This document shows, in pieces, positions 5,915 through 63,449 of a DNA stretch of 64,000 nucleotides. Source of the stretch: Heptranchias perlo (lineage: Eukaryota); contig NC_090357.1 in the NCBI RefSeq assembly GCF_035084215.1, forward strand, positions 9,610,001-9,674,000, given 5' to 3'. The position numbers were made by a program, and so were the translations under genes. Every line of letters begins with the position of its first letter. Positions within the stretch are counted from its first letter, which is position 1. Below the pieces are notes generated by a model. That model had not been told where the DNA came from and did not search any database. It saw only the letters and a program-made list of their open reading frames with translations.

Positions 5915-7975
5915 GGGCAATCTGAAATAAAAACAGAAAGTGCTGGAGAAGCTCAGCAAGTCAGGCAGCGTCTGTGGAGAAAGAAACAGAGTTAACGTTT
6001 CAGGTCGAAGGCCTTTCGTCAGAATTGGAAGATGTTAAAAGAGTAACGTTTTTGAGCAAGTACAGAGCCAGGGAAAGAGGGGTAGGGAGGGGAGGGGAGG
6101 AAAGAACAAAAGGGAAGGTCTGTGATAGGGTGGAGGGCAGGAGTGATTAAATGACAAAAGGGATGATGGCGCAATGCAAGGAGGGTGGTAATGGGACAGG
6201 TTAAGAAAGAAAAGATTGATCAGGAGTAGCTGAAAATGGCAGCATAGAACCATTACCAGCACTAGCTGACTGAGAAAATGGGAGCAGTGGTTATGATCTG
6301 AAGTTATTGAAATCAATGTTGAGTCCGGAAGATCGTAAAGTGCCTAAACGAAAGATGAGGTGCTGTTCCTCAAACTTATGTTGAGCTTCATTGGAACAGT
6401 GTAAGTGGCCGAGGACAGAGGTCAGAGTAGGAGTGGAAAGGGGAATTAAAATGGTAAACAACCGGAAGGTCAGGGTCAGAGCGGAAGTGTTCAGCAAAGC
6501 GATCACCCAGTCTGTGTTTGCGGTCTCCTCTACATTGGGGAGAGCAATGTGTGCAACGGATACAGTATAAATTGAAAGTAGTACAGGTAAGCCGTTGTTT
6601 CACCTGGAAGCAGTGTTTGGGGCCCTGGACGGTGGGAAGGGAAGAGGTGAAGGGGCAGGTGTTGCATCTCCTGTGCTCACACGGGAAGGTGCAATGGGGA
6701 GGAGAGCGGGCGTTAGGGGTGATGGAAGAGTGGACTATGGTGTCGCGGAGGGAACTGGGAGGGGAGGACGTGTTTGATGGTGGGATCGTGCTGCAAGTGG
6801 CGGAATTGGCGGAAGATGATACGTTAAATGTAGAGGCTGGTGGGGTGCAAGGGGAAACCTATCATGGTTCTGGGAGGGAGGGGAAGGGGTGAGGGCAGAA
6901 ATGCAGGAAATAGGATGGACACGGTCGAGGGCCCTGTCAACTACAGTGGAGGGGAATCCTCGGTTGAGGAAAATATTGGAAGCACTGGTGTGGAAGGTGG
7001 TTTCGTCAGAACAGATGCAACAGAGATGGAGAAACTGGGTGAAGGGAATAGAGTCCTTACAGGAAGCGGGGTGGGAGGAAGTGTAATCAATGTAGCTGTG
7101 GGAGTCGGTGGGCTTATAATAGATATGGGTTGACAGCCTATCCCCAGAGATTGAGATAGAGAAGTCAAGGAAGGGAAGGGACGAGTCGGAGATGGACCAT
7201 GTGAAGGCGAGGGAAAGGTGGAAATTGGAAGAAAAGTTGATGAAATTTTCCAGTTCAGGGAAGAGAGCAGGAAACGGCACCAATAGAGTCATCAATGTAC
7301 TGGAAAAAGAGGTGAGGGAGGGTACCCGAGTAAGACTGGAACAAGGAATATTCCACGTATCCCACAAAAAGGCAGGCATAGCTAGGATCCTGTCCTAGTG
7401 GGGGATGGAGATGTCGACGGACTTAACGTCCATGGTGAAAAGGAGACAGTTAGAGCTGGGGAACTGGAAACTGTTAAAGTGGTGGAGGGTGTCAGAAGAG
7501 TCGCGGATGTGGGTTGGAAGAGACTGGACAAGGGGAGAAAAAAAAGTCAAGATAGGATGAAATAAGTTCCATGGGCTGAAACGATGGGTCCACCAGGGCA
7601 GTCCTGTTTGTGCATTTTGGGAAAGAGGTGGACGCGGACTGTGCGGGGTTGGGGGACTATGATGTTGGAGGCAGTGATGGGGGGGAGATCTCCAGAGGAG
7701 ATGAGGTCAGCGATGGTCTGGGAAGCAATTTTTGGCGGTGGGGTCACAGTCCAGGGGGGAGGCAGGAGGAGATGTCGGAGAGTTGGCGCTCGGCCTCCGC
7801 AAGGACCGCCCTTGCCAGCAGGTTTAATGACAAATATCAGGGTTGGACCTGAGAAAATGGAGTGCTGCAGGTTCAGAGGGAGGGAGGTTAGAGTGGGTGA
7901 GGGTGGCCGAGAAATGGAGATGGTCAACGTCACGGCCGGCAGTTGGCAGTGAAAAGATCGAGAGAGGGTCAGCGG
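5915..7975 (-). mobile_element. Penelope-like retroelement remnant (RT, GIY-YIG endonuclease, hammerhead-bearing terminal repeat)
   Basis: Minus-strand fragments FTMDVKS (RT motif A), LFFQYIDD, LPFLDFSI..YYKPTDSHSY..SSHP, and a GIY-YIG-like CTTFNLYCIRC...RLGDRFAEH. CTGACGA...GAAACGTT motif at about 5990-6025. Confidence 0.85.
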
Positions 7976-7977
7976 CC

Positions 7978-13900: not shown

Positions 13901-15444
13901 AGGGGGGAGGGGGAAACGAGAGGGGGGAGGGGGGGAAACGAGAGGGGGGAGGGGGGAAACGAGAGGGGGGAGGGGGGAAACGAGAGGGGGGAGGGGGGAA
14001 ACGAGAGGGGGGAGGGGGGAAACGAGAGGGGGGAGGGGGGAAACGAGAGGGGGGAGGGGGGAAACGAGAGGGGGGAGGGGGGAAACGAGAGGGGGGAGGG
14101 GGGAAACGAGAGGGGGGAGGGGGGAAACGAGAGGGGGGAGGGGGGGAAACGAGAGGGGGGGAGGGGGGGGGAAACGAGAGGGGGGAGGGGGGAAACGAGA
14201 GGGGGGAGGGGGGAAACGAGAGGGGGGGAGGGGGGAAACGAGAGGGGGGAGGGGGGAAACGAGAGGGGGAGGGGGGAAACGAGAGGGGGGAGGGGGGAAA
14301 CGAGAGGGGGGAGGGGGGGAAACGAGAGGGGGGAGGGGGGAAACGAGAGGGGGGAGGGGGGAAACGAGAGGGGGGAGGGGGGAAACGAGAGGGGGGAGGG
14401 GGGGAAACGAGAGGGGGGAGGGGGGAAACGAGAGGGGGGAGGGGGGAAACGAGAGGGGGGAGGGGGGAAACGAGAGGGGGAGGGGGGAAACGAGAGGGGG
14501 GAGGGGGGAAACGAGAGGGGGGAGGGGGGAAACGAGAGGGGGGAGGGGGGAAACGAGAGGGGGGAGGGGGGAAACGAGAGGGGGGAGGGGGGAAACGAGA
14601 GGGGGGAGGGGGGAAACGAGAGGGGGGGAGGGGGGGGAAACGAGAGGGGGAGGGGGGAACGAGAGGGGGGAGGGGGGAAACGAGAGGGGGGAGGGGGGAA
14701 ACGAGAGGGGGGGAGGGGGGGAAACGAGAGGGGGGGAGGGGGGGGAAACGAGAGGGGGGAGGGGGGAAACGAGAGGGGGGAGGGGGGAAACGAGAGGGGG
14801 AGGGGGGGAAACGAGAGGGGGGAGGGGGGAAACGAGAGGAGGGAGGGGGGAAACGAGAGGAGGGAGGGGGGAAACGAGAGGGGGAGGGGGGAAACGAGAG
14901 GGAGGGAGGGGGGAAACGAGAGGGGGAGGGGGGGAACGAGAGGGGGGAGGGGGAAAGGGGGAGGGGGAAAGGGGGGAGGGGGGAAAGGGGGGAGGGGGGA
15001 AACGAGAGGGGGAGGGGGGAAAGGGGGAGGGGGGGAAAGGGGAGGGGGGGAGGGGGGAAAGGGGGAGGGGGGGAGGGGGGAAAGGGGGAGGGGGGGAGGG
15101 GGGAAAGGGGGAGGGGGGGAGGGGGGAAAGAGGGAGGGGGGAAAGAGGGAGGGGGGGAGGGGGGGAAAGGGGGAGGGGGGGAGGGGGGGAAAGGGGGAGG
15201 GGGGGAGGGGGGGGGAAAGGGGGAGGGGGGGAGGGGGGGAAAGGGGGAGGGGGGGAGGGGGGGGAAAGGGGGAGGGGGGGAAAGGGGGAGGGGGGAAGGG
15301 GGGAAAGGGGGAGGGGGGAAAGGGAAAGGGGGAGGGGGGGGAAAGGGGGAGGGGGGGAAAGGGGGAGGGGGGGAGGGGGGGAAAGGGGGAGGGGGGGAGG
15401 GGGGGAAAGGGGGAGGGGGGGAGGGGGGGAAAGGGGGGGAAAGA
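7978..15444. repeat. G-rich tandem array of about 7.5 kb (14-bp AGACGGGAGGGGGG, then 21-bp AGACGAGA-G6-A-G6, then AAACGAGA-G6-A-G6, then G/A only)
   Basis: Directly visible tandem periodicity. The plus strand has no T, and C occurs only in CpG. Confidence 0.97.
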
Positions 15445-15644
15445 NNNNNNNNNNNNNNNNNNNNNNNNNNNNNNNNNNNNNNNNNNNNNNNNNNNNNNNN
15501 NNNNNNNNNNNNNNNNNNNNNNNNNNNNNNNNNNNNNNNNNNNNNNNNNNNNNNNNNNNNNNNNNNNNNNNNNNNNNNNNNNNNNNNNNNNNNNNNNNNN
15601 NNNNNNNNNNNNNNNNNNNNNNNNNNNNNNNNNNNNNNNNNNNN
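15445..15644. other. Assembly gap (200 N)
   Basis: Run of exactly 200 N, probably a placeholder length. Confidence 1.
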
Positions 15645-16030
15645 TGAGGGGGGGGGGAGGGGAGGGGGAGCGGGAGCTGTGACGGCCGGGGGCCGGGGGG
15701 CCGGGGAGGAGGGTCCTGCCACTCACCCATTCCTGCTCTCCGTGCTCTTCTCCTCCGCTTTGCGCTCCTCTCTGGGGACCCGGCTGCTGTCTCCACTGGG
15801 GAGGAGGCCCCCGTCCAGGGACTGCCTGCTCCCGCCGCCGCTGCCGGCCGCTCCTCTGGCGCTCGCTCGCTGCCTCACCTTCAAGGCCATCGCCTGACAA
15901 CCGGGTTACGGTGACCGGCGAGGCTCAGCCCGCGCCCCCCTCGTCACCAACGGCAGGCGGAGAGGCTCAAAATTACACTTCGGTGAGACGAGCGGTCGCG
16001 TTAAAGGTGTATCACTGCCCCTCGGCTGAT
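15645..16030. promoter_or_regulatory. CpG island / ALG9 promoter
   Basis: Very GC- and CpG-rich segment spanning the putative first exon, in an AT-rich background. Confidence 0.7.
15727..15890 (-). CDS. ALG9: ALG9 alpha-1,2-mannosyltransferase, coding exon 1 (rest of the gene lies left of the window)
   Basis: GCGATGG Kozak start; MALKVRQRASARGAAGSGGGSRQSLDGG...EEKSTESRN(G) resembles the ALG9 N-terminus (MASRGARQRLKG...). GG|GTGAGT donor, CpG-rich context, and syntenic position next to FDXACB1. Confidence 0.75.
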
Positions 16031-16829: not shown

Positions 16830-18200
16830 TTCACACCCCTCTGCATAACGTAGATAAAAGCAGACTTCCCTCTTGTAAGTTTCAGCCCATTATCCCTGGT
16901 TCTAAAGTTTCTGGCAATCTCCAACATACCTGGTTTCAATTTATCTATTCCCTTAAAAATATTGAATGTTGAATAATATCTCCCCTGAGTCTTTTCTCCA
17001 AATTCTTCAATGTCTACTCCTAACTAAGATACATTGACTATCTTGGTTGACCTTTTCTGCACTGCTTCCAAAGCCTGAATGCTCTTGTAGTATAGCAATC
17101 AAAATTGTACACTGTTGTCCAAATGTAATTATACCAACGTCTGGCAGATTCATTATCACCTCCTGAGCTGAGAACTCTATCCCTCTGAGTGTACACTCCA
17201 AGATCCAATTAGCTTTTCTTTACTGCCACCACACACTACACATATTGAGCTTTGCACCAATATCTCAAATCCATTTCCTTGGTGTCATATGGCCTAGCAC
17301 CATTTTGTTTATATTTTCATTGTTTATTTCCCTTCTCTCATCTCATTATCTTCCATTTGTTTACATTAAATGCCATTTACCATTCATCAGCCTACTTTCC
17401 CAAAACTATCCAAATCCTTTTGTATTTGCTTTGCATGTTCCCTTGTTTGAAACCCTTCTACCTGCCCCCAGTTTAGTGTTGCCTGCAATCTTAAACAGCT
17501 TTGTTTCTGTGCCCATCTCCAAATCAAGTACACACATTGTAAACAGCGATAGCCCCCCGCACCGATCCCCATGGCACCCCATCATCGACCCCCTGCCATG
17601 TTATTGAAGATCTTTTTGCAACCACACTTTGCTTTCTCTGGTTTAACCAAATTTCTGTCCACTGCATAAGCTTGCTTTTTATTCCATAACTTCCTATCGT
17701 GTGCATTAATGGCTTATGTAGCATTCACTCAAATGGATTGCTGAAATCTGAATATATCACATCTACAGAATTTCTGTTGTCCACTAGCCCTGTAATTTCC
17801 TCAAAGAACTCCAGTAAATGTGTTAGGCAAGACCTCCCTCCCATAAATCCATAGTGATTCCTCCTTACCAAACTCATCGAAATGTTTCAGGGTGCTAATA
17901 CTTTACCTACAATAGAAGTTAAGACTCATTGGCTTGTAGTTTCTTGAGTTTCCTTCATACCTCTTTTCAAAGATTGGTTGGTATTATGTTAACTACTTTC
18001 CAATCCTCGGGCAATATTCAGGATTCCCTAAAAATAGTGGTAAGGTTGTGACCAATTTCACTCACCACTTCTTTAAGGACCCCTGTATGAGGTCCACCTG
18101 GGTCTATTGTCTTGTCTTCCTTTAGGTTTCTCAGCCAACCAGTGAGTTCATTATCTTAAATTTCTATTTCTTTTAGTACTTACTATGCCCTGCCTTTCCC
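16830..18200 (-). mobile_element. Old, degenerate CR1-class LINE fragment
   Basis: Minus-strand remnants such as GIKSKLMQWTEIWLNQRKQ..GVPWGS and HYGFMGGRSCLTHLLEFFEEIT. Confidence 0.8.
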
Positions 18201-18736
18201 CCAAAAATTCAGCTTCCGTCCTTGGGAGGCCGCTCATGGCCTCTTCCACGAGCACAACCCTTCACACTATGCCTGTGTACTCCTCCTGGATACTTTGCAG
18301 ATCCAAGATAATCTGCAACATGTATGCATTAATGCACACAGTAGAAACGTATGGAATAAAAAGCAAGCTTATGCAGTGGACAGAAACTTGGTTAAACCAG
18401 AGAAAGCAAAGGGTGGTTGCAAAAAGGTCTTCATTAACATGGCAGGGGGTCACTACTGAGGTGTCATGGGGATCGTTGCGGGGGCCATCGCTGTTTACAG
18501 TGTGTAAACTTGATTTGGAGATGGGCACGGAAACAAAGCTGTTTAAGATTAAACTGGGGGAAGGTAGAAGGGTTTCAAACAAGGGAACATGCAAAGCAAA
18601 TACAAAAGGATTTGGATAGTTTGGGAAAGTAGGCTGATGAATGGTAAATGGCATTTAATGTGAACAAATGGAAGGTAATGAGACGAGAGAAGGGAAATAA
18701 ACAATGAGAATATAAACAAAATGGTGCTAGGCCATA
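17288..18736. repeat. Inverted duplication, arms about 17288-17711 and 18326-18736
   Basis: The arms are reverse complements with few differences. Both encode NYPNPFVFALHVPLFETLLP, on opposite strands in the ORF track. Confidence 0.9.
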
Positions 18737-20019
18737 AGACCTAATTGATTAGAACTAATTTTCAATACCTGCCTGGTTTAGCAGACTCAAGCCCACTCTG
18801 TCTCATTCCTGAACATTGGTTCTGTCCAAACTTGTTTCCTTACCTTCCCTCATGAAAAGAAAATCGCCCTGTCAGCATCTCACTCAATTGGCCTCTTGCA
18901 CCTCAAGAAGTTTCTCATTTAACTCATTGAATTCAAACCATGGAACCATTTTTTACAAAATATTTACATCCAGTGTTAGGATTAAGCACTCTCAGATCAG
19001 TTATAACAGCATAGAAAGCTACTGTTCTGCCTCAGGAATGCTCTTATTCCAATATCAGACGAGTGTTACCCCATTGGGTACCAGTGTGACATCTCCACTT
19101 CCCACACCAGCCATCCTTGGATGATGCAGCTACCTGGGTACTGTAGGATCTTTTCTGGATTGATGAATTAAGATGGGCTGAATGGTCTTTCTCATTCATA
19201 ATTGTCTTGTGATTTGAGTGAAACCATTAATCTAGTATGAAACATAGGCAGTGTTGCGCTGTGAACTTATGTCCACTAGGAACTAGATTGAGATTATCCA
19301 AACTAACTTTAGTTAGGACCATGACATCCTTTAGAGGGAACAGACATTATTCTGGGCTGGATTTAAACCCAACAATTTGCATTTATATAGCGCTATTAAT
19401 GTAGACATGTCCAACAGAGCTTTACAGAGGGAAAAGAGCACTGGGTCCAGATTTGGTCATTGTGAAACCCCGAACATAAAGGGAGCAACAGGAATGGAAC
19501 TGTTTGACTGCTCCCTGACAGGTCAAGCAAGGAGCAGTATTGATATCATCTGCACAGGCCTCCTGACTGACGATCTTCCCAATCAGGGAGAATGACGTGG
19601 ATGTAGGGGGTAAAAATGGGTGGAAAAATTAGTTACAACCCCCCGAGATTTTCAAATGAAAGTAAATGGATGATGTGAAGACCAATCCAAAAAGTTGTCC
19701 TTGAATCACGAAGACAAACGTGCGTTTCTTGAAAGAAATGACAGGCCAGTCTGATCTTTAAATTGTTCTCCATGACAATATTGCCAACATCCCTTGGAAT
19801 TTAGAGTTTCCCTCCAAAAATATTTTTTGCCAAATTTGAAACCCTGCAACTGATCTCAAAAGAAAGACAACCTAAAAAAAAAATCTTGTTTACATTTATA
19901 AAGGAACGCTGGATGTCTGCCTGTTCAAATGGACATTAAAGCTGTTATGTGAAGACGGTAGGGTTGGAATGCTAGAGGAATGGGAGAAAATCAGCTAAAG
20001 GGCGTCCCTCGACCGATAC

Positions 20020-20480
20020 CGCAGTGCAACATTGTCAGAGTGCCATCTTTTGGTTGAGATGTTAAACCGAGGTCCCATTTATCTGACGAAGGGTCATCGA
20101 CCTGAAACGTTAACTCTGTTTCTTTCTCCACAGATGCTGCCTGACTTGCTGAGTATTTTCAGCATTTTCTGTTTTTATTTCCCATTTATCTGTTCCATTG
20201 ATACGGGTGGATTCTAACAATCCCATTGCATTATTCAAAGAGCAGGGCCTTCTCCTGCTGTGCTGACCAACAATCCTCTCTCACCCAACATCGCCATGAA
20301 CAGGTTATTTAGTTATTCATCTCACTGCTGTTTGTGCAATCACGCTGTGCATAAATCGGCTGCTGCATTTACCTACACATCAGCAGTCACTGTACTTGAA
20401 AGTAATTCATTGTACGTGAAGTGTTTTGATATGTTCTGAGAGACATGATGAGGTGCTCCATGGATGCAAGTCTTTCTTCC
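20020..20480 (+). mobile_element. DeuSINE copy interrupted by a Penelope-type terminal-repeat fragment (20073-20192)
   Basis: GAGATGTTAAACCGAGGTCCC and GGATGCAAGTCTTTC match the other SINE copies. The insert is flanked by a TCCCATTTATCTG direct repeat. Confidence 0.75.
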
Positions 20481-21355: not shown

Positions 21356-22586
21356 TTATCTAAGAGTTACTTGAAAGCTTTTCTGTAGTTCGTCTCTGAG
21401 ATGCAGTTGCATTTCCAATGCTTGTTGATAGGACAGTGCCTTGTCACATAACTGGTATGTTAGCCTGTAACAGTAGCTCATATGTTTGGTTTGAGCGTGC
21501 CAGAACCTGTCGATCAGCCTCATTTCTCTCACCGACTCCCTGCTTACTCTCCGTACAATCGTATGGAGCTCCAACTCATCCAGCTTCCTATTAGCATCAA
21601 CCCAGAAGCTGACATCATGTGTATAGCAGGGCGGGTAGAGTGAGAAACCACAAAAAGGTTTCAATTCTGAGGTACCACTGTGGTTTAGGAAGCGTTCATC
21701 GAATGTCCACAGCATCCTCCAATCATTTATGTGATAAAACACCATGGACAGCAGGTCAAGGTTTATTGAAGTAACACAGATATTTAGCTCACCATTGGTC
21801 TGTTTATGAGGAATGAGAACCAATTTTCCAACAGCTAGATTGGTACAGTCTGGGTGTTCCACATCTTTAAAACAAATATTCCAACTTTTTCCACTGGCCT
21901 CCTCTTTAAAGATGACCAATCTTAAGCCTGTGTCCATCTGGTGGATTTCAGAGGAGGTGGTACTTGACGCTGACTTTATGAGGAAAGAAATGGCACTCTC
22001 CACAGAGCTCATAAACAGACGGAAATAATCTGGCTGTCTTTTATCACTAAAAGCACTAACCAAAACCATCTCGTGGAATACTGGCATAGTTTGCGGTGTG
22101 ATCACGCACTTCTTGAAAACGGTGCCGCTGAGTACATAGATTATTTCAGCTCTAAAGTCTGGTCTTTGCAACATGTTGTACACGTATCCTGTCAGAGTAG
22201 GCCGGAGACAACACCTCCTGCAATCCTTGCTCGCATCAGGGATCCCAGCCTGTTTTAAAGGAAAGCAGTCCACATTCTGCCCTGTCTTGTTCCCTCGGCT
22301 CGGATCAGACATTGGCACAGAAACATCACAGCATCGAGGCTTGGTCACCTGTCCGCACTCTCTGCTTCTCCACTGGTCCTCTTGACAGTTGGAACAGCTA
22401 ACCCAATAAAGCTCGGCCTGACAAACCTCAGATCCTATGTAGGTGTCATCAGACTGAAGGCCAGTCTTTGACAGCAGAGGAAAGTTGTTCTCCAGTTCAT
22501 GTACAGTCGCTGCACCTGCAATCTGCTTTCTCAACAACTCTTTAATGACATTTACTGGGTGGTTTGAACCTTTCTGAAGAAAATTC
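21356..22586 (-). CDS. FDXACB1: FDXACB1 last coding exon (includes the C-terminal ferredoxin-fold anticodon-binding domain)
   Basis: ttgcag|G acceptor at 22586. NFLQKGSNHPV...DWRMLWTFDERF...SLYPPCYTHDVSFW...SYCYRLTYQLCDKALS...FQVTLR*. AATAAA on the minus strand at 21236-21241. Confidence 0.93.
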
Positions 22587-22729
22587 CTGCAAAGATTAAA
22601 ACAGATCTCCTTTAGAACAGTAGTAAAAGGCACATATTTCTCTAGTTTAGACAGTCCCAAAGAAGGGGGCATGCCAAGGTTATCAGGGGGTGCGAGGTGG
22701 TTGAGCTGGACAAGAACGAGAACTACCAA

Positions 22730-22921
22730 TGCAGCCTCGCAGAGCCAGAGGAGGTGCAATTTGGGGTGATCTCCACTGATTTCTAGAAGTGGACAATGGA
22801 CCCATCAGAGCTGCTTCTGGTGCATAGTAACGGGTTACTATGCACCAGAAGCAGCATAGTAACGGGTTACTATGCTGTGCTGAGCTCTCCTCTGCACCTC
22901 CTCTGGCTATCCGAGGCTGCA
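22730..22921. repeat. Foldback element with 29-bp imperfect outer inverted repeats and nested internal palindromes
   Basis: Outer arms 22730-22758 and 22893-22921; perfect 22-bp hairpin 22810-22855; 12-bp hairpin 22852-22877. Confidence 0.85.
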
Positions 22922-32897: not shown

Positions 32898-33990
32898 GGG
32901 TCTGGATGGAGAGTAGAGGTGGGTCTGAATGGTGAGCAGGGGTGGGTCTGGTTGGAGAGTAGGGTGGATCTGGATGGAGAATAGGGGTGGGTCTGGATAG
33001 AGAGCAGAGGCAGATATGGATGGAGAGTAGGGGTGGGTTTGGATGGAGAGTAGGGGTGGATCTAAATGGAGAGAAGGTTGGGTCTGGATGGAGAATAGGG
33101 GTGGGTGTGGATGGAGAGCAGAGGTGGGTCTAGATGGAGAATAGGGGTGGGTGCGGATGGAGAATAAGGGTGGGTCTGGATGGAGAGCAGAGGCGGATAT
33201 GGATGGAGAGTAGGGGTGGGTCTGGATGGAGAATAGGGGTGGGTCTGGATGGAGAGCAGAGGCGGATATGGATGGAGAGTAGGGGTGGGTCTGGATGGAG
33301 AGTACGGGTGGATCTGAATGGAGAACAGGGTGGGTCTGGATGGAGATCAGTGGCAGCTCTGGCTGGAGAGTAGGGGTGGGTCTGGATGGAGAGCAGGGTG
33401 GGTCTGGATGGAGAGTAGGGATGGGTCTGGATGGAGAATAGGGGTGGGTCTGGATGGAGAGTAGGGGTGGGTCTAGATGAAGAGCAGGGTGGGTCTGGAT
33501 GGAGAGCAGAGGCAGGTCTGGCTGGAGAGTAGGGGTGGGTCTGGATGGAGAGCAGGGTGGGTCTGGATGGAGAGTAGGGATGGGTCTGGATGGAGAGCAG
33601 GGTGGGTCTGGATGGAGAGCAGAGGCAGGTCTGGCTGGAGAGTAGGGGTGGGTCTGGATGGAGAGTAGAGGTAGATATAGATGGAGAGTAGGGGTGGGTC
33701 TGGATGGAGAGTAGAGGTAGATATAGATGGAGAGTAGGGGTGGGTCTGGATGGAGAGTAGAGGTAGGTCTAGATGGAGAATAGGGGTGGGTCTGGATGGA
33801 GAGCAGGGTGGGTCTGGATGGATTATAGGGGTGGGTCTGGCTGGAGAATAGGGGTGCATCAGGATGGAGAGCAGGGTGGGTCTGGATGGAGAGCAGAGGT
33901 GGGTCTGGCTGGAGAGTAGGGGTGGATCTGGATGGAGAATAGGGGTGGGTCTGGATGGATAACTGGGGCTGATCTGGATGGAGAGCAGTG
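32896..33990. repeat. Minisatellite, 21-24-bp units of GGGTGGGTCTGGATGGAGAGTAG
   Basis: Dozens of variant units are visible. One orphan unit lies at about 32522-32540, on the far side of the LINE fragment. Confidence 0.95.
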
Positions 33991-34742
33991 GCTAGTCTGA
34001 TGCATCTTACTGTGCGAGTCAACATTCTCAGCATGAAATCTGATAAAGTCAAGGTACCACTCACAACTGCTGGACAAAAACTTAGGGACTAAGATGTGCT
34101 GTGTCTGATAAATTCATGCCCAAATTCCAAGCTTTGGTGAAAGTGAGACTGCAAAGGTTCATATTGAATGGTGGTAGATGTTTAAGTAAATATACACGTG
34201 AAGTACATTTACCTGTATTGTTTGTAAGGTGTTTTCTACTAAAATCAGTGCATGTGGCTAAACCTGTGTCTCTGTAGTCACACCTGTGGCTAGCCAGCGA
34301 TTTCTATTCATTTTATTTACATTTTAATTGTTTATTTTAGTGCAACAATATTACAGGAATAAAGTTACTCCTGACATTGGGGCGTTGTTGATTATGCCAT
34401 ATTAGAGTTTGTTTCAGTGCGGCAGTGGATAAAATAAAATTCCGGGAAAAAAAAAACTGGCCACCTCTTTGAACCAGGAATCACTGAAGTTGTCGGCAGA
34501 ATGAAGGTTAACAGCCGGGACTCTGCTAATGTTTCACATTTCCACAATGGGCCAACTCTAACTATCGGTGTAACAAACAAATGACAGAATGAATCAAACA
34601 CGGAGTTGAAGTTCAGATGAATCATCTAAAAAGATACATAGTTGTGGGGAATGCGCGCAATAAATCGCCTGGGAGTGTGACTCACTCTGCCGGCTCTGTG
34701 ATGTAATTAACAAAACGACTGGGGTACCAGTCGCAGCGTCCC

Positions 34743-36542: not shown

Positions 36543-38598
36543 ACCCCAATCCTCAATGTCCATAAACATGCACTTTCCAAGCTGGAATATCAGCCACATG
36601 CAGGAACCCTCGATGATTCTTCCTCTCCCCAGTACATGGCACTAGGCCCAATTGTAGTGCACTTACTGTCACCATGATGAGATCGTATCAACGAGATGTC
36701 ATCACATGTCAATCACATGAAGCATCCTCAACATCTGGCGACACGAGGTCCACCAATGACAAAAAAAGCAGCAAAATGGAATAAAATTGCTCCGACAACT
36801 TCCACCTGACCAGTGTCCACACCTACGTCTGGAAAATGCAGTCTACAACCTTCGGTGGCTCCCTTCCCTGCCACAACACCCACTGCAATCCCAACTGAAA
36901 AAAATATATAAAAAGAGAGTGCAAAGAAATAGAAGAACACATTCAGAGAAGCACAAACAAAGAGAAAGGGAGAGAATCAGATGAGAAGGGTAAGATAGAC
37001 AGGGAAGAGGGGGAAGTCAGAAAGGGAAGCAGCAACATGATGATGGCAGTGACGTGTAAGAGGTCAACCAAATACCACGACTTACCATAAACAATGTCAC
37101 AGGAGATGTGTTAGTATCTTATAGAATAAATAGACACATAGGACTGATTTGAAAACCGTAGCCTAACCTCAGGCTTTGGATGACATAGACCGTTAGAGCA
37201 AATTTGGATTGAGGAGAAGCATATCTTATAATGTCACTTAGGTTCTTAATATCATTCCCATCTATATATTAATTTAAAAGATAGTTAGGTGTCACGCCTG
37301 AGTCAGCATTTTAGCAAATTTCATTGGCCAACACTAATTAACTGACCTTTCAAACATTAGTGTTGCTTTCTAAAAATCTCACTGGCCAATAGTGACTATT
37401 CTGATAGTTATGTGTTTGATTTTCACGACTCTGGACCAATGCCAGTACAGGTGCTAGGCTGGGACGGGGATTCAGTGGCTTCACTTTATACAGTAATGGC
37501 TCTGGCCTCAGTGCTGGGCTCTGCTTTTAACACACTGTGCTGCAGTGGCCTCTCGCTGTTTTTGCTTCTGCCTCTCCTGCCCTTAATCCATCTGCTAGAA
37601 CAGCCGCCTGTATGTGAATAAGCTTCCCTCACCACCTCCAGACACAACTGTAACCAGCATCCACTTGTATTCCCTATTGAGGCCTTCAGCAGCCTTTTCT
37701 ATGACGTCAGAAGTGACCCAGCCTCAGCTTGGTGTGACACAAAGTGTCATTGACATTGAAGTAACAGGTGTAGCAGAGATAATGGGAGAGAAAACAGGCA
37801 TCAGGAACATGTATATAAAGGGAGTCTAATAAAGAAAGAAAGACGTGCATTTATATAGCGCCTTTCATGATCTCAGGATGTCCCAAAGCGCTTTACAGCC
37901 AATTAAGCACTTTAGAAGTGAGTCACTGCTGTAATGTAGGAAACATGGCAGTCAATCAGCGCACAGCAAGTTCCCACAGACAGCAATATGATAATGACCA
38001 GATCATCTGTTTTTGGTGGTGTTGGTTGAGGGATAAATATTGGCCAGGACACCGGGGAGAACTCCCAAGACAAAATGATGGCAGTAGGGACAATAGAAGA
38101 GTAAGGATAGACATAGTGTCAGGCCCAAGCAGAGACTGAACAGGGTATAGCACAGAGAAAGAAAGTACAAACAGACTTGAACCTGCAGGCAACACCATAG
38201 AAGATTCACTGGTATCTTAAAATGATTTGTGAAACCATGTTAAAAATTCTAGGCATCATACATTAAGCCCACAGTGGTAAAATGAGGTAAAACAACAATT
38301 GACAATACAAACACTTTGTAAATGGCACTGGGGACTGAATTCAATGCATTAAATGGAAAATCTTTTCCAATTATTGTACAAATTGCTCCTCCAAATTAAA
38401 AGTTGCTTAGTTCATATCATCTGATAATTCATTTTTTTGTTACTAAATTCCCACTTTGCTGTGCTATTTCTGGTTGCTTAATTTAAATGATTGGATAATT
38501 CATTCTTTTTAGCACAAAAATGACTTTGAATTATCAGGAGTAGATAGTATTAGACAAACAGTGAAATTATTTATATATTTAGCTTGCTTTTCTTGCAG

Positions 38599-38662
38599 TA
38601 CTCACATGCCTATAAGACGATATATGGAGATTCATATAACAAGGAGGAGAAACGCTGTAGAT
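38599..38662 (+). CDS. CFAP68: CFAP68 coding exon 2
   Basis: tttcttgcag|TAC...AGAT|gtaagt, 64 nt, phase 0-1. YSHAYKTIYGDSYNKEEKRCR resembles human FGHYFETTYDTSYNNK. Confidence 0.88.
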
Positions 38663-38878
38663 GTAAGTGATAATGGATACTTCATCATACAGTTAAAAAT
38701 GTAAGCAAAAAAAAATGTAAGCAAATACTAAGTACCCTTTCTCACAGATTGAAGAGATCAGTGTTACTGATACTAGTTACAGGGCCATTGTATTTTGACA
38801 TTGCAATGCTTATCAAGACTTTTCGAATTCTCACAAATAAATTTTATCTAATAAATGAATGCCAACCTTTATAAAACC

Positions 38879-39128
38879 AACCTAGATGAATGTAAGGAAT
38901 CTTACAACACCAGGTTATAGTCCAACTGTTTTATTTGAAAATCACAAGCTTTCGGAGGCTTTCTCCTTCGTCAGGTGAGCGCACTCGCTCACCTGACGAA
39001 GGAGAAAGCCTCCGAAAGCTTGTGATTTTCAAATAAAACAGTTGGACTATAACCTGGTGTTGTAAGATTCCTTACATTTGTCAATCCCAGTCCATCACCG
39101 GCATCACCACATCAAACCTAGATGAATG
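38879..39128. mobile_element. Short Penelope-type insertion: perfect 93-bp inverted repeat with a minimal hammerhead ribozyme on each strand and a 14-bp flanking direct repeat
   Basis: Arms 38889-38981 and 38986-39078 are exact reverse complements. AACCTAGATGAATG occurs at 38879-38892 and 39115-39128. Confidence 0.85.
38989..39025 (+). ncRNA. Minimal type I hammerhead ribozyme motif (mirror copy on - strand at 38942-38978)
   Basis: TCAC-CTGACGA-A-GGAG(AAAGC)CTCC-GAAA-GC-TT-GTGA: intact core, stem II, palindromic stem III and a 4-bp stem I. Confidence 0.7.
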
Positions 39129-39790
39129 CAGTTACATGCTTGTAGGTAGGAACAACACAGAATACACCTATCATTTACAGGGAACGATACTGAAAGTGGT
39201 TGAGAGAGAAAAGGATATAGGTGATATTATGCACAGATCACTGAAGGTTCACAATCAATGCAGAGAAACTCTAGTCAAAGCAATCAGGGTATTGGGTTGG
39301 ATTAATAGAACCATTCAGTGCAAATCAAACCATTCTATCACGTCGTTGGTTAGACCGTATCTGGAGTACTGCACCCAGTTTTGGTCCCCTCACATGGTGG
39401 GTGATACAGTGGCCTTGGAAAAGGTGCAGAGGAGAGCTACAAGAATGGTTCCTAGCTGAAAGAACCTTAATTACTCAGATAGGTTTAAAGAGCTGGGTGT
39501 ATTTACTCTAGAGCAGCATAGACTTAGAGGCGACCTGATAGAGGTATATAAAATAATGAAAGGGCTAGATTGCTTGTCTATTGATAGATTATTTCAGTTT
39601 GATAGATTGGGGAGGACCAGGGGTCATGCATTTAAACTATGCAAAAGTACAAATAGGCTAGATGTTAGGCTATTCTTTTCCCAGAAAGTAGTGAACTTCT
39701 GGAATGCATTGCGCACTGGTGAGATGTGTGCTGACTCTCTGCCTTCAAGAGGGAGCTGGACCGGTTCTTGGCTGGGGCAGAGATTGTATC
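39120..39790 (+). mobile_element. Old CR1-class LINE 3' fragment (probably begins near 38850, interrupted by the palindromic insert)
   Basis: SLVRPYLEYCTQFWSPH, EKVQRRATRMVP, FFSQKVVNFWNAL. Confidence 0.88.
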
Positions 39791-40985: not shown

Positions 40986-41227
40986 GGGGTAATTTTAAGC
41001 CCCAAGAATGGGTGGGTTGAGGGTGGGCGGGAGTTGAAAATAGTTGTTTTTTGGGTCGCGACCGCAACCCAGCTCCACTTCCGGGATTAATGTGGGCGCG
41101 TAAAGTACAGGCTTCCCACTGGGAAAGCAAAGTCTGAAAATTTTGCGGTTGCGAACCAAAAAAACCCAACTATTTTCAACTCCCTCCCGTCCCCAACCCA
41201 CCTGTTCTTGGTGGTTAAAATTACCTC
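40986..41227. mobile_element. MITE-like foldback element with about 95-bp imperfect terminal inverted repeats
   Basis: GGGGTAATTTTAAGCCCCAAGAA... versus ...TTCTTGGTGGTTAAAATTACCTC. Confidence 0.8.
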
Positions 41228-51980: not shown

Positions 51981-54026
51981 TCAGTGATGAAGATAGTAAC
52001 AGTCGTGCTTTATAGCGTACATTAGTGAGAAATACCAGTGAAATGCATCACCTGCACTTTAAACAGCTGAGTGCTGCTGAGAGCAAGCAATCCCATTACA
52101 TCTGAATTTCACTTTCTGGCCTCTTTTAACATGTTAATATTCTTTTAATAATCTTTGTCATGGGGAAACATTTTGAATGGTGTGCAGACAGTTTGAACAG
52201 TGCAACACCTCTTTATTGATCAGTTGTTTAAATCACTGATGCTCTGCTCAATCTACCATTCAAACGGCTTTGCTGCTACCTCCGGATGTAGTGATCATTT
52301 GTTTATAGTCATCATCTGGGGACCTGTCCAAATCGATTATTATAAATGAATACCACTGTAATGTGTTTGGACAGTTTCCAAACCCAGTTCCTAGTAATGT
52401 GGCCCACAGTAGAAAACTACCCCATTTGGTACTAAATTTTCTAATCCCATTCAAAGAATCCGCAACAATGAGTGCTGAGGGAAATGTTGAAGACCACAAT
52501 AAGCTTATTGTTGAGGCAGGGCAGAGGGATTTTCTCTCTGCAACTAGCTGTGCTGCACCTTATTTGGGTGTGGTTAATGCTGACTTATAGTTCTTGAGGT
52601 GGGAAAGTGTCCCATTCTGCAATGTTCCACTTCTCATCTTGATGAGTGCAAATATTAATCCTCCACAAAAAAAGGCTACAACTGCAAATTCTAATGCTGC
52701 AAATAACATAAGTCAGAGAGCTACAGAAAATGGTGATATATTATGTTGCTGTCAACCATTGAAAAAAGCATGACCAGGATACAGGCCAACAGGGAGAGCA
52801 TAGGGCAGTGGGGTTCATTTTGGATTGTTCTAGCAAAGAGTTGTCACAGACATAATGGGCCAAATTACTTTCTTCTGTGCTGTAAACTTTTATGGCTCTA
52901 TTCAAGTGATGGACAAGGTGGAGTTTTGGTTTAGATATTTTCTGGCATTTCTCCAAATATTTCACTTGAAACTTTCAACCCGTTGGCAGTGTTCTGTGAT
53001 AATGTTCTATTTAGCACTTACTAATGATATATGAACTCGAACCATCAAAGGACCTGTAGAGGAATGTTGGTGTGAGCATGTGAGAAAATAAAGCAAAGAA
53101 TAGTGGGTAGGCAGTATGTAAAAGCCTTCTGAATTCATCCCAGACTTATAGCGTAAAAGCCTTTCTTCTCTCATGACCGTTAAAGCTCTTACAGGTACTG
53201 AGTTTGGATAGTCTCAAACCAACTCCTGTTCAATTCAAAAACTTTCCTTTATCGTCTTCTTGCCAATTTTTCCCTTCCTCTCCTCTTCTAAAGGGGTTGA
53301 TCTTTGCTGGAGTACATTCCACGGACAGCACTTGCCCTCAGGTATTGCGCCTTCATGTGTGAGCATCAGTGGGTTATTCAACTGAATAAAGTTCAGTTCT
53401 ATCGTTAACTGACATCCATACATGCAAGGGTCACTGGGTAGCAAAACAGTAGCAGGGGTCTGGCTAGTTTCCCCTCCCTGACCCATGGTATTAAGGCCAA
53501 TTGTTGTGTCCCTATGCTTCCTCCAGCTGAGATCAGCAACTCAACACAGATCAGCAATTCAACTTATGACCTTTCTAGTCTATATGACACACCAGATAAA
53601 CTTGCTGAACCATCAAGGATACATGAAAATTGATCTGCACAGACAATGCATTTCCAAGTTGCTGTGAAATCGGCTAACATGGTTGAGCTGTTCAAAGTGG
53701 TACAATCATAGTGTCAAATATTGAACAATACTGGTTTTGCAATGCTAACAATGTTGAAAATACACATCAGGCCTGTCAACAACTAAAAAGGGAAAAAACA
53801 GTTTAATATTTTGAGTTGGGATTCCTTGTCAGAACAGTTCTAAGGTTTTCAACTGAAACATTGAGCTAATTTTCCTCTTTTCAGATGCTGATGGATCTGT
53901 TGTGCAATTCCAGCATTTCCTGTTTTATTTTGGAGTTTTTCTTTTTATTAATAGTAGGTCTGTAGGGCATTAATGTGTTCACATAAAGTAAAGCAGGGCG
54001 TCCAAGCTTTTGGTCCTCTTGGCACT

Positions 54027-57099: not shown

Positions 57100-57410
57100 G
57101 TAAATTTATTTTCGCTTTTAACCGTAAAGTTGAGTTATTGCGGGGGGCAGTGGGTGTATGGACCAAGACGTGTGGAGATCTGAAACAGGGCATGGGGAGA
57201 TAATGTAATAACATTTTAATTTTTAAAAATTGTTTGGTGAAATCTTTTCTTCATTGAACAGCAAACCAATCAAAAATTTGGAATGTAAAATCAAGGTTAA
57301 TTTTAATTATTATCAATCTATCAAAATATAGTATCACTGATAGGGTACTTCTATGATGTATTATAAAGTTTCACTTTCTATTGTTTGATAAGTTCCAATG
57401 AATTCCTCAG

Positions 57411-57874
57411 GTTTGTCATCAGAAGATATTTTAGCTCCTACATTGTACCACGGTTACTATATCAGACCCAGGATCAATAAACAGCTGGACCGAGGCTTTT
57501 CAGAGATTGCAACAAAAGATCATAAATTTCAGGTATTCCTGGACGTCTGCCAGTTCCTGCCAGATGAGATCTCAGTTCGGACGGTGGACAACCTGCTGGA
57601 GGTGTCCGGAAGACATCCTCAGAAATTGGACAGCCACGGTTTTATCTCCCGAGAGTTCACACGCACCTACATCCTGCCCCTGGATGTGGACCCTCTGATG
57701 GTTCGAACAACACTGTCCCATGATGGCATCCTGTGTATCGAGGCACAGAGGAAAGGAGATGAGATCCAGCCCAAAATAAACAACGTGAAAATCAACGTTG
57801 AATCACCTCCCTTAGCAGCAGAGCCTAGGGCAGACACAAATAAAGAGAAGCAGAAGGATAAGAGTAGTTCCTGA
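57411..57874 (+). CDS. HSPB2: HSPB2 exon 2
   Basis: cctcag|GT. LSSEDILAPTLYHGYYIRPR...FQVFLDVCQFLPDEISVRTVDNLLEVSGRHPQKLDSHGFISREF (alpha-crystallin domain). 185 aa in total; AATAAA at 58130-58135. Confidence 0.96.
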
Positions 57875-58840
57875 AGTGAGAAGAAAAGAGCTCACTGACC
57901 CTCTTTACATGATTGATATTGATATCCGGTTCTTTGTTGACACATCTGAGCCTACTCTAGAAAACAGGGCAAATTATTAAAACGGCTAGGTTGCAAGTAG
58001 CTCACATTTTGTCAACTAGTTTTAAGTTGACAATGTTGCCAGTAAACCTAAAAAATGACTAATTTTGAAATATGTTGATATCTGCTGTATATATGAAGCT
58101 AGGAACCTTAATAATTAATATCTGCCACCAATAAAATCTGATGATTAGTGTAATGATTAACTCCCTCCTCCAATTTTTTCCCCTCGCCCCTCCTCTCTGG
58201 AAAAGGAGACTCGTACTGGAGCACATTTACAAAGGGTGTCCTCAACTACCTTTCCAAGGCTTTCTTCACATGGTCTTTTCATGTTGATAGGCTATTGAAA
58301 TGTAGGGCCTTCATAGCTCAGCCTGAACTTGTCCTTTGACATCCACAAAAATGCACTTGCCATTGATTAGGAGCTAGGGACTCCCCCTCCTCAACTTATT
58401 CCCAGGGCTACTGATCCTTTTCTCCTTTGACATCCATTGGATGGATAAACACATACCAGGGATTGAACCTAGGACCTATAACCGAGCACTGCAACACTTT
58501 GCCACTGAGCCATTGGGGCAGCACTGCTGGCATTCCTGATGTCTAGCGTGTTGACTGGCGTTTGGAATTTATTAACAAATTCTTTGGTCTTACAACTATG
58601 GGGTCTAATTTACTTTTTCATGTATGTAATGGCAGTCATTATTGCTTTTTACTTATAATAAAAGCAAAACCCTGTGCTGAAATAATTATTTGCAGGAGTG
58701 CTCCCAGCTGGTTCTTTCAGACAGCGAATCACCAGCTAAAAAGTTACATGGAACAGGTCAATCGTTTTTCAAAACCATGACAATAAAGTCACGTAACAGG
58801 CCTTAATAGGAGGATATATTTTAAGAGTGAAATCAGTTAA

Positions 58841-58993
58841 GGGTTGATTTTAACTTTCGGCGGTGGTGGAAAACGGGCAGTAGCGGATTGGCCGGCTTTT
58901 ATGCAGCCTGTCCAATTTTCGAGCAAGGTGTATAATGACCGGTTGATCCGCTACTGCCTGTTTTCCGCAACTGCTGAAAGTTAAAATCAGCCC
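58841..58993. mobile_element. MITE-like foldback element (about 55-bp imperfect terminal inverted repeats)
   Basis: GGGTTGATTTTAACTTTCGGCGGT...CAGTAGCGGAT versus ATCCGCTACTG...CTGAAAGTTAAAATCAGCCC; TAA/TAT flanks. Confidence 0.8.
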
Positions 58994-61900
58994 TATAGTT
59001 TGTCATACATAAGAAATGCAATAAAGTGTTTAAAAGTTAAAACTGCAAATGCTGGAAATCTGGTTCTGAAAGGCCCATCAGCAACTGAAAAGAGAAAATA
59101 CAGATGAACATTTCCAGTAGAGATACTTCAGTGCTTTTATCTAAACTGACTTAGTCAGGGTCTCTGACTAGAGTGATAACATTTTTTCCTGCTCCTAATT
59201 GCTGACCAGGAATCCTCCTGAAAGTGCTTGTCTTTGGCTGTCAAGTGAGGCTTTTATTTCCAATAAAATTAAGTACTGCCTGTCAGTTTGGGGACATAGC
59301 CTGAGGTCAGGTACAGTTGTCCTGACAGAATAAATTCACCAACCTTGTGCTCCCAGTGGAGCACCATGCTTATTAGGAGTGTGTTCAGAGAATTGGTACT
59401 ACAATGCTATAGCCCTGTCTCATTTTGAGTCATTCTCAATTGTGCTACTATTGTGAATTTGTGCTACTGTTCTTCAGCTCTGCTTTCTCAAGTGCAAATA
59501 TACTGTAGCACAGAAAAATAACTGAGGGCCTTCACATCTTTGGAAACATATGCTCCAGGACACCATCATAGGGATGTTTGTAGCATGTAGAGCATTTTAT
59601 ATAGGACAGGCTAGGGTCTTCTGCACCCTCTTTGCTACACTATCCATTTGTCTCAGTTTCCCATGTCCTACAAGCTGATTTTGACTGTTTTGGATCACCT
59701 CATGTACTTTCCTGTTCCTTCAACTCCAAACAAGCATCAATAATGCCTTTTCAGTAAAAACTAAACATGTTGGAATTTATGGAGAAATGCTTCAATTACT
59801 CCTTAATGAAGTAAAAACACGTCTAACATGGGTTAAGTGTGTTATACCTGTTTACTCCCAGGAGCAATTTTAGGATTGTGGGTAAAAGTTAATTAAACAC
59901 ATTCCATTAACACTAATGCACAGTAGTACCATATCTTAATATTTAATTAAGACAAGTGCTGGCATGAATACTCAGAAAAAATTAAACTCCTAATAGAGTA
60001 AACTGCCCTCTGCCTTTGCATTGCATAGTCCACTGAACCAGATATTGAAACATCAACAGTATGCTTTGTTGATAAAAAACAACTTTTGTGTAAGTAGGAT
60101 CACTGAGGATGATATCATCTCTTGTAATTGTGTGCCTAGGTTTTAAAATCATTTTTAATAAGGCATTATAAACTTTTCACTTATTGATACTGATCATGAT
60201 AGTTCCAGTGTTGCTAATGTAAATTGGTTTCTATCCTTTTAGTTCTGAACTTCATTTGCAGCTTTTAAACTGCACACCTTCTCCTCTCTACATAACATCC
60301 AGAAAATACTTGTGTTTCTGTAAATTTTTGAATACATATGTACTGAATAAAAATAGAATATGGGAAATATACAGAACTACAGATTTTTTTTTCAGTGCTA
60401 TGAATAAGCGACAATTATTGCAATCCTGGTCCAAATTTAATTTGGTGGAAAAATGCTACAGGACTTTGATGGACCAAATTATACAGATGTCTTTACATGA
60501 AACTTTGAAATTGAATTGATAAAGAAATTGATGAAGAATAAATACTTCCTTTCCAAAAGAAATACTTAAAATAATTCTGGTTGAGAATTTGAGCGTGTAC
60601 TTTGATTTAAAACAAAGAGGAAAAAATGAATTATAAAACTGAAATTTAAAAAATGATACTTCTTATAAAACATGGATAAAGGTGGATTGCTTCCTTTCCC
60701 CAAGCCCTGGTTTTGTTAAAATAGCAAATCATATTAATCACAATTGCAAAGTTCAGATGTATTATTAACCTTCATTTGGTTCAACTTACGTAATGAAAAT
60801 GTGTTCACGTTGCAAAATGAAAAGCTCTTTCACAGAAGATCTACAAAGCTAATCTATCAAAAAAAACCTAAAAATAAGATTATCAAAAGAAAATAGAAAA
60901 ATCAATGGAACCGAGGAATTTTGTTCTAATTTAAATTGTTCCTGGATTGAAAAGTAAAAAAAAGGTGCAATCTTGGCCTCGCTTTTCCCATTAGTGTTTG
61001 GGGAAAATGGTATAATGCTACCTGCAGTATTTTTTCATCTGGTAGCACTGGTGAAAATGGATGACCACAAGGCTTCTGATTTCCTGATACATCTGAGTGA
61101 CGTACTATCAGTGGCCAGGGATAAAGACAAGCACATTGACAAAGTGGCAAGGTGAGTGATACTACCAAGCCGCTGCCTGGTTACCTAATAGTTTGTTTTT
61201 GGTTACTACCAGGTATAACTGGCCTCATGTTCACTGCCACCCCCAATTTCTTACTTCCTGGATGACCTTAGTAGGTGTTATCCTCAGTTGGTCTGGATTC
61301 TGGTTTTGCATAGGACATTTTTTAAAGAAATATTCTCCAAGTTCAAGGCTTTGCAATGGCCTTGTCTTATATTTGTCCTAACTACAATATTGCCCCAGAT
61401 TTATTTTTACCCTAATAGGTTTCTCATGGTAAATCAGATGATACACTGATTTATATTAATAGGAGCATTAAACCATATTTGAAGCAGAGTCCATAAATAC
61501 TTTTAAAAGTGAATTAGATAGTTACTTGAAAAAAAGATTTACAGAGGATGGGGAAAGAGTAGGAGAATGGGATGGTACATGTGGCTAAAAGTACTGAAGC
61601 ATATTGTTTCTGTGCCATATACTTCTATGATTAAATATTATGATGAAGCTGTGTTTAAGCTGCCCTGTCCCTTTATGGTTACAAAATCTAATTGCTGTAA
61701 GTAAACACAGGCTGAGATCAGAGTTTAATTTTGTAAAGGAAGCTTGCAGATTGTAAATTTTTGGCTCCAGGTCAGAAAAAATAGCATGAAACCACTGCCT
61801 TTTGTTCTCAATTTTATATACTTTTGACACTTTGAAGCATGGTGTCTGCAGTGTGATGATGCTCTAAAAACTTTTAGATATAATAGATTTATTATTTTTA

Positions 61901-63449
61901 AATTTTCTTTTAACTACTCAGTTTGGCTCCTTTTCCATATACATTTGGCTTACAGTGAGATTGGGGCACAGATATAACATCTTAGTACCTAGTTAAACGT
62001 TCCTAGCGCTTCCTCTTCATCCCCTTTCCTTCATCTAGTTAGCTTGCTGCATAGCCTAATCAATAAAGCATCTTTGGAAAATTCCAATGTTCATACTTAA
62101 CAACTTTTAGTTTTAAATTGTAAATATTTCACTGTCCAACTTTTCTTTTTGCTTTTGCACAGTTAAGATTGCATGGCAGAGTGGAAAGCTAATAGAATGT
62201 CAGAAAATACTATATTCCGGCTTCACTAGATTCAGCTTTGCTTATCTACCAGTGTCTTGCTTCTTTTACTTATGTTTCTCCCTCCTTTAGGTCTTTCTCT
62301 GGTTGAGAGCGATCACTACCAAGTTTCTGACAATTGTGATCTGTAAACCAGCTACCAAGAGGTGCATGAGACCAGCTTGGGATGTTTTGCCCTCTGATAT
62401 TCACTTGCTCCCCATGGGCAGGTATCTAGCCGCCACTCAGTGCCCCTCGCTGCTCAATACACCAGACAAGACTAGATCTGAAATTGTAAACCTCAGCCCG
62501 TGTACTATCACTCCATCGCACTGCACATTGGTACACCAACGTGCTGCGCTATTCACAAAATACCGCAGATGCTGGAAATCTGAAACATAAATAGAAAATG
62601 CTGGAAACGCTCAGTACGTAAGGCAGCAGTAGTGGAGAGAACAGACAAAGGGTTTCACATATGGACCCGTCATTTCTTGTGATGCCAAAATAGTTGATTA
62701 AAATTTACAACACTATTAAAGTACTCATTTAAAGTGTACGTAACGCTAAATACGACATGAGCTCTAACTTCCTGGAAAAAATAGCATTCTGCGTCACTTA
62801 CAAAGCTTCTGCAGCTGTTACAGTCATATATTTGGACCCGAGTTGATGATAAAACATTTCATCTAGTCAGTCATGATGGGCAGCTGAACTACCAGTATGA
62901 ACCAATGTATCCGGGCCAAGATATCAAAAGCTTGATTCATCAAGTTGATATATATACATATAAAAATAAAACTCCCAGGACCTATCTGACCCAACTTCAT
63001 CCTTGTGGAAATAGCGAGCTGCTTCTGGACACTCGATTGATGTCCGCAGCTCACCAGCAATATGCTGATAAGATCCAATTTCAGGTGAGCCTTGGGCCTC
63101 CGGCTACTGGCGTGTTCTCCCAGCGCCACACATATTTCAGGCCCAAAGACGGGCCAAAACAAATTTTCACCTGAGGTGTCTAATGGATGCCTGGCGGTGC
63201 ATCCACATGTGGTGAGGGAAGACTGGTGCTGAGTTACCTTGGAGCTTTAGAACATACTTTTTAACAGCTGTTAACCAAATGCCAGTACTTAGCGTCTCAG
63301 AGCAGGCCACCTACTCATTTTGTGGCAGGGGAATAATGCATTGCACACAGCAATCTAAAGAAAGAAGAAAATAATTAACAGAGTCGGGATAGGCAGTATG
63401 CTCCTGTAATACTTCGCAGGGTGTGCGTTACTGGGCTGTAACACAATCA

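Follow-up and report, generated by a model that had tools for sequence, protein, structure and literature searches.

Penelope-like elements (PLEs) typically leave an inverted, 5′-truncated copy beside the inserted one, together with a tail of 30–40 bp (PMC8557442; Craig et al., 2021), and head-to-head pLTRs with palindromes at their junctions and target-site duplications of 8–10 bp have been described among them (PMC3846280; Arkhipova et al., 2013). Minimal hammerhead ribozymes occur in pairs on opposite strands, 100–700 bp apart (PMC4209133; Cervera and de la Peña, 2014). A PLE protein cleaves and extends both strands, with two internal start sites of reverse transcription (RT) that bound the tail (PMC11167929), prefers AT-rich DNA and does without ribozyme cleavage (PMC11167929; Frangieh et al., 2024). 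Retrozymes, on the other hand, are defined by head-to-tail tandem units (PMC7229834; bioRxiv 10.64898/2026.07.22.740005).

The unit analysed here lies in a window of 64,000 nucleotides of the Heptranchias perlo genome (the whole stretch of DNA studied, numbered from its first letter). A sequence-only reading had seen in it either a one-off inverted Penelope truncation or a non-autonomous, retrozyme-like family, and had ranked it as the window's best candidate for an undescribed system. The first of these proposals is supported by the ends of the tail, by the 5′ truncation with an inverted copy, and by the minimal hammerhead, while the architecture as such is already in print (PMC3846280, PMC8557442, PMC4209133). 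Like the EN+ PLE insertions in PMC3846280 and PMC8557442, the unit has a head-to-head truncated copy, a tail on one arm, a target-site duplication and a palindromic junction; it differs from them in that no ORF lies between the arms, making it a minimal case, and in that the centres cluster 5′ of the ribozyme, and its duplication measures 14 bp as against 8–10 bp in the rotifer examples (PMC3846280). Its hammerheads share the short stem I, the extra base before stem II, G10.1-C11.1 and the palindromic stem III with those of metazoan PLEs, but have a stem II of 4 bp and a U at position 17; opposite-strand hammerhead pairs are known from Schistosoma too, whereas here the cores are ∼20 nt apart and perfectly complementary (PMC4209133). 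With the Anolis Poseidon element PAc it has in common a tail bounded by two fixed ends, an AT-rich target and a retained cut-site sequence; the PAc ORF, however, starts inside the ribozyme, while all three plus-strand reading frames here run into stops inside the arm, and on our side the comparison is one of sequence (PMC11167929).

Non-LTR retrozymes are likewise small, non-coding and PLE-derived and carry a type I hammerhead (PMC7229834; Li et al., 2026), but they consist of head-to-tail repeats that release monomers and circles, whereas here the arrangement is head-to-head and each strand has a single ribozyme. A retrozyme has at least two head-to-tail units, and the window contains one head-to-head copy; with no tandem units in the window and with hammerheads that face apart, the proposal of a retrozyme-like family is not supported. 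Four features characteristic of PLE insertions are present: a minimal type I hammerhead in a pLTR, a 5′ truncation with an adjacent inverted truncated copy, the optional tail of 30–40 bp, and a target-site duplication in AT-rich DNA, the duplication being deduced from the CR1 reading frame. On these four tested features we file the unit as a likely PLE stub, and we regard it as mostly ordinary, because its architecture has been described before and because the hairpin is predicted to keep the ribozyme unfolded.

Anatomy of the unit

The two arms, each of 93 nt, are 100% reverse-complementary. They, the 4-nt loop, the 36-bp tail and the flanking 14-bp repeat are all exact, as the sequence-only reading had reported, and the AATAAA that it had noted after the hammerhead is present and mirrored on the other strand (Table 1). 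Four nucleotides of the direct repeat belong to the left arm as well, and the chance of finding a repeat of this length is ∼5e-6 even when 30 × 30 placements are allowed. The insertion has a net size of 222 bp, or 226 bp counting the 4-nt overlap.

Table 1. Features of the palindromic unit and its surroundings (window positions).
Feature	Position	Strand	Remarks
Probable coding exon of CFAP68, 5′ of the insertion	38599-38662	+	Splice signals; donor at 38663, insertion 216 nt beyond
Target-site duplication, left copy, 14 bp	38879-38892	+	Microhomology: last 4 nt shared with the left arm at its outer end
Left arm	38889-38981	-	Inverted 5′-truncated pLTR copy, tail absent; outer end mirrors 39078, beside the family end at 39079
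Minimal type I hammerhead, mirror copy	38942-38978	-	Own descriptor
Apex of the palindrome, 4 nt	38982-38985	.	Indel variants in runs X1 and X10
Right arm	38986-39078	+	5′-truncated pLTR copy; summed contig depth 0.8-2.4 million vs 12.5 in the unique flank
Minimal type I hammerhead	38989-39025	+	Own descriptor; agrees with the descriptor in PMC4209133
AATAAA hexamer	39032-39037	+	Mirror at 38930-38935 on the minus strand; putative poly(A) signal
Penelope-type tail, 36 bp, on one arm only	39079-39114	+	Family loose ends behind 39079 and 39114
Target-site duplication, right copy	39115-39128	+	CR1 homology becomes detectable here, its first five codons coinciding with this copy
Old CR1-like LINE fragment (target)	39115-39498, extending further right	+	tblastn

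A short palindrome with a flanking duplication is also what a MITE or fold-back element moved by a transposase would leave behind. In this unit, however, the 36-bp tail parts the right arm from the duplication, which terminal inverted repeats would adjoin at both ends, and the arms consist of a repeat that bears a hammerhead and has two fixed 3′ ends; we hold this origin to be extremely improbable.

Host gene and target site

The host is a CFAP68-like gene on the plus strand, whose exons on both sides of the insertion match PF06608 with E-values of 0.0019 (below the curated cut-off) and 2e-8. The earlier assignment to intron 2 of CFAP68 holds for the gene, which has Pfam support, but is uncertain for the intron number, as the middle exon at 38599–38662, which yields no Pfam match by itself, is defined by its splice signals. 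An FDX-ACB domain gene (21356–22804, minus strand) and an HSP20-family exon (57392–57874, plus strand) flank the CFAP68-like gene, in what we take to be the vertebrate gene order.

With a CR1 ORF from elsewhere in the window as query, tblastn recognized the CR1 fragment (42% over 132 aa, E 2e-31). The homology sets in with the first base of the duplication and extends rightward only. To the left we found no CR1: 97% of 500 shuffles reached as high a score as the 150 nt there. The insertion thus lies 14 bp within the CR1 fragment, measured from its detectable edge. It had been described as splitting an old CR1, of which the part to the right is confirmed, while the left flank shows no CR1 homology, so that no long copy was split.

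Hammerhead motifs and predicted fold

The two inverted hammerheads proposed from the sequence were recovered by a descriptor for minimal type I hammerheads, which has two matches in the 64-kb window, one per arm and on opposite strands; in 100 Markov controls, relaxed matches averaged 0.06 and strict ones were absent. The plus-strand motif has a stem I of 4 bp, an intact core, an extra base before a stem II of 4 bp, and a self-complementary stem III region, with the predicted cut after 39021 (U17). Rfam returned no hammerhead among its 13 matches at E ≤ 10; the best of these, mir-3199 (53 bits, gathering threshold 100), was rejected, its score reflecting the long hairpin only.

Since the two hammerheads sit on opposite strands, a transcript from either side contains a single ribozyme together with the sequence exactly complementary to it. 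Dimers are thought to be necessary for minimal hammerheads (PMC4209133), and a dimer within the unit is impossible because a transcript carries only one ribozyme. The full hairpin has a predicted fold of −172.5 kcal/mol, and the pairing probability of stems I and II drops from 0.86–0.98 in the isolated motif to 0.00 once the left arm is included; the right arm and tail alone fold no better than shuffles (z −0.09). Predicted folding supports the suggestion that the ribozyme is masked inside a 93-bp dsRNA, and the perfect stem takes in the poly(A) signal as well. Within CFAP68 pre-mRNA, folding into a ribozyme-blocking 93-bp hairpin is predicted, and the unit is therefore most likely inert. An intronic dsRNA of 93 bp could undergo editing by ADAR or dicing.

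An abundant family with two ends

Contigs from 4 of 13 sequencing runs were matched to positions 38560–39400 at 80% likeness. The run X1 comes from organism A and is possibly the assembly's own sample; organisms B and C carry the element family as well. Bins across the element reach a summed depth of 0.55–2.4 million in X1, against 12.5 in the flank, which puts the arm at ∼1e4 to 3e5 copies, a rough bracket for k-mer overlap rather than a true copy number. The unit is thus a single member of a family with a very high copy number.

Loose ends in X1 accumulate at two places, behind 39079 (80 contigs; agreement 0.35) and behind 39114 (69 contigs; agreement 0.38). These are heterogeneous family ends, 35 nt apart, and it is there that the two arms of this copy end; such a spacing is the tail signature of PLEs. 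Beside the junction, one consensus is common to the loose ends at 38988 and at the mirror position 38979 (agreement 0.45–0.46), from which it follows that longer upstream forms exist and that this copy is 5′-truncated. Both arms have the same minority allele at 38927/39040 (∼23% of depth), pointing to one source for the two.

Tandem duplications of the arm's last 35 nt (38889–38923, mirrored at 39044–39078), about the length of the tail, were seen in contigs of X1 (3) and X5 (8). Outside these runs, a scan of metagenomes with a conserved 22-mer gave 0 matches, and a scan with the hammerhead pattern gave two in metagenomes and none in either the viral or the prokaryote collections. The two metagenome matches, on marine contigs (L001:600–684 and L002:600–740) that are near-identical to each other, represent a sequence distantly related to the arm and tail, in which the hammerhead core and stems are conserved and the 600 nt of upstream sequence are non-inverted.

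Authenticity and age

One 400-nt contig in X1, at the single-copy depth of 12.5, joins the unique left flank to the inverted arm with zero mismatches. An assembly or fold-back sequencing artefact would fit with the facts that none of the contigs listed extends from one end of the stretch to the other and that the centre and right junction of this copy are absent among the 8 X1 records listed; we nevertheless consider it highly unlikely, given the mismatch-free contig across the left junction (from a run that is possibly the assembly's source), the different flanks, and the presence of a duplication and a tail, neither of which a fold-back read would yield.

The unbroken left junction suggests homozygosity, and there is no empty-site joint among the 15 joints listed of 121, with organism C covering the left flank at 38562–38762 only. 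The unit had been called very recent. This is borne out only in part: the arms are identical, but 0 mismatches in 93 positions permit a divergence of up to 3.2%, one base of the tail, T39085, differs from 99% of the family depth, and the left junction reads as if homozygous.

Palindrome centres in the family

Among the 15 joints listed of 121, 11 connect the left arm to the right arm with other centres, and 10 of these 11 lie −11 to +6 nt from symmetry; of the other four joints listed, one steps back by 35 nt and three involve CR1. Because the listed arm-to-arm joints fall elsewhere, shorter palindromes with many centres exist. The one joined at 38957>39010 and centred on hammerhead stem II has a depth of 358 in X1, where it mostly comes with one 5-nt filler, and of 166 in X10, and is found in X6 too; we regard it as a candidate hot spot for snap-back.

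Close to the centre of this copy, X1 contigs are gapped at 38979, 38982, 38984 and 38986 (4, 13, 20 and 9 contigs, respectively), amounting to at least four indel forms, the 20-contig form alone having a depth of 2,429. Their summed depth is 4,376, against 960 for the 10 deeper centres listed that are present in X1. The comparison is a rough one, since a nearby centre registers as an indel but a distant one as a joint, and some gapped contigs are perhaps non-palindromic. In X10, the summed depth is constant at 11,431 across 38979–38986; 24 contigs with a depth of 9,860 are 3 nt short at 38986, and a single contig lacking 5 nt has a depth of 4,440, compared with ∼15 for unique DNA. A further 106 joints, 50 indels, 166 differences and 705 loose ends lie beyond those listed.

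The centre is a preferred zone with varied junctions and no single fixed sequence. The sequence-only reading had asked whether the same centre recurs, with different inversion points marking ordinary Penelope truncations; many other inversion points do occur, near-identical centres also recur with varied indels, and the outcome leans towards the ordinary. Ribozyme cleavage as the process that sets the centre was considered and rejected: the predicted cut is ∼37 nt away on the 3′ side of the centre, and its position is retained within both arms. We found no account of clustered centres or of this family in the literature consulted, although Repbase, Dfam or supplements may hold the family.

Origin of the palindrome

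The reading that we prefer, by a modest degree, is that of a dead, 5′-truncated pLTR insertion of an abundant PLE, its mirror form having been made at insertion and without a palindromic master. As to how, it seems somewhat more likely than not that nicks staggered by 14 nt each served as primer for a cDNA, one per start site, and that the two cDNAs were joined head-to-head. Judging from the duplication, the element's GIY-YIG endonuclease would have nicked both strands of the AT-rich intron 14 nt apart, and each nicked strand would then have been extended along pLTR RNA that had not been cleaved and that came from a single source. One cDNA would have started at the family end 39114 and yielded an arm with its tail, the other at 39078/79, with 4 nt of target pairing, and yielded an arm alone; both ends are seen in the data, and priming at them is proposed after PMC11167929. 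The two cDNAs would have halted 3–7 nt 5′ of ribozyme stem I before joining head-to-head. A transcription start there might be what makes RT halt near the 5′ edge of the ribozyme.

Several points weigh against this preferred explanation. No RT or endonuclease ORF was seen for the family, whose PLE identity comes from non-coding signatures. Two-strand priming on one template in vivo does not appear in the passages of PLE literature consulted, and PMC3846280 favours self-priming. Formation at insertion is further countered by the strong recurrence of centres near this one (the constant depth of 11,431 in X10), and a palindromic master or snap-back at a native hairpin would likewise yield recurrent centres.

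Snap-back would produce the same stub if a cDNA started from 39114, folded back 5′ of the ribozyme and copied itself, its end annealing through the 4-nt microhomology. The identity of the arms, minority allele included, agrees with this, as do the recurrent centre 38957>39010 at hammerhead stem II, a native hairpin, and the interpretation of junction palindromes as self-priming in PMC3846280; but the second arm ends at the major family end 39078/79, an RT start site in the anole element (PMC11167929), where snap-back requires an extra cut or stop. We think this course possible and clearly less probable than two-strand priming. More doubtful still is a palindromic, non-autonomous family of ∼230 bp, transcribed and retrotransposed whole by a Penelope enzyme in trans. 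Near-identical centres at high depth in two organisms (9,860 and 4,440 in X10; 2,429 in X1) speak for it, whereas the centres differ by indels of 1–5 nt, at least 11 other centres occur among the joints listed, longer upstream forms exist, and a perfect hairpin of 93 bp abolishes the predicted ribozyme fold and would make a poor RT template. It is conceivable, if rather improbable, that PLEs of this lineage mass-produce minimal palindromes through a fixed stop 5′ of the hammerhead, such as an RNA 5′ end, and that some of these now form a hairpin family that is copied whole.

Other elements in the window

A decayed PLE of a second family occupies ∼5924–7700 on the minus strand, with RT-like motifs recognized by eye and with HTH_animal-like and GIY-YIG-like pieces that have no Pfam support; it ends in a hammerhead-like pLTR at 6023–5924, which links a similar end to GIY-YIG-like coding sequence and speaks for the PLE reading of the unit in the CFAP68 intron. 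A long low-complexity purine/pyrimidine array (∼7900–15700), beside an N gap, adjoins it. Older remnants of the second family are found at 62582–62638 and 53882–53930, and a solo copy of 100 bp at 20082–20181, 91% alike, non-inverted and truncated at the ribozyme core, is flanked by a 13-bp duplication (20073–20085 and 20180–20192). Its stem III palindrome has CG where the unit in the CFAP68 intron has GC. That this copy is cut off at the ribozyme core fits a general tendency to stop near the ribozyme, as a single case.

Three other palindromes, at 58840–58994, 40988–41225 and 22810–22855, are 77%, 70% and 96% self-complementary, respectively, and have no hammerhead matches; the first two look like old MITE-type elements. 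The window further contains an inverted pair of ∼430 bp with 90% identity (17284–17711 and 18327–18740) and a minisatellite of 1.1 kb (∼32900–34000).

Significance

Taken singly, the locus carries little weight, being one of thousands of stubs, with a published architecture and a ribozyme predicted to be masked. Its value lies in the population to which it belongs, where both arms end at the tail sites, cross an uncut ribozyme and meet near its 5′ edge. The formation of inverted repeats and the completion of the second strand in PLEs are called unresolved in PMC8557442 and PMC11167929, and the clustered centres offer a modest mechanistic lead: a genome-wide survey of centres, outer ends and arm mismatches could separate two-strand priming, snap-back and a palindromic master computationally. 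Should some of these units indeed be a hairpin family, introns would be seeded with perfect dsRNA of 90 bp, with silencing of the parent element as a further possible effect, and the copies, hundreds of them to a single centre, would constitute a natural library on PLE second-strand synthesis.
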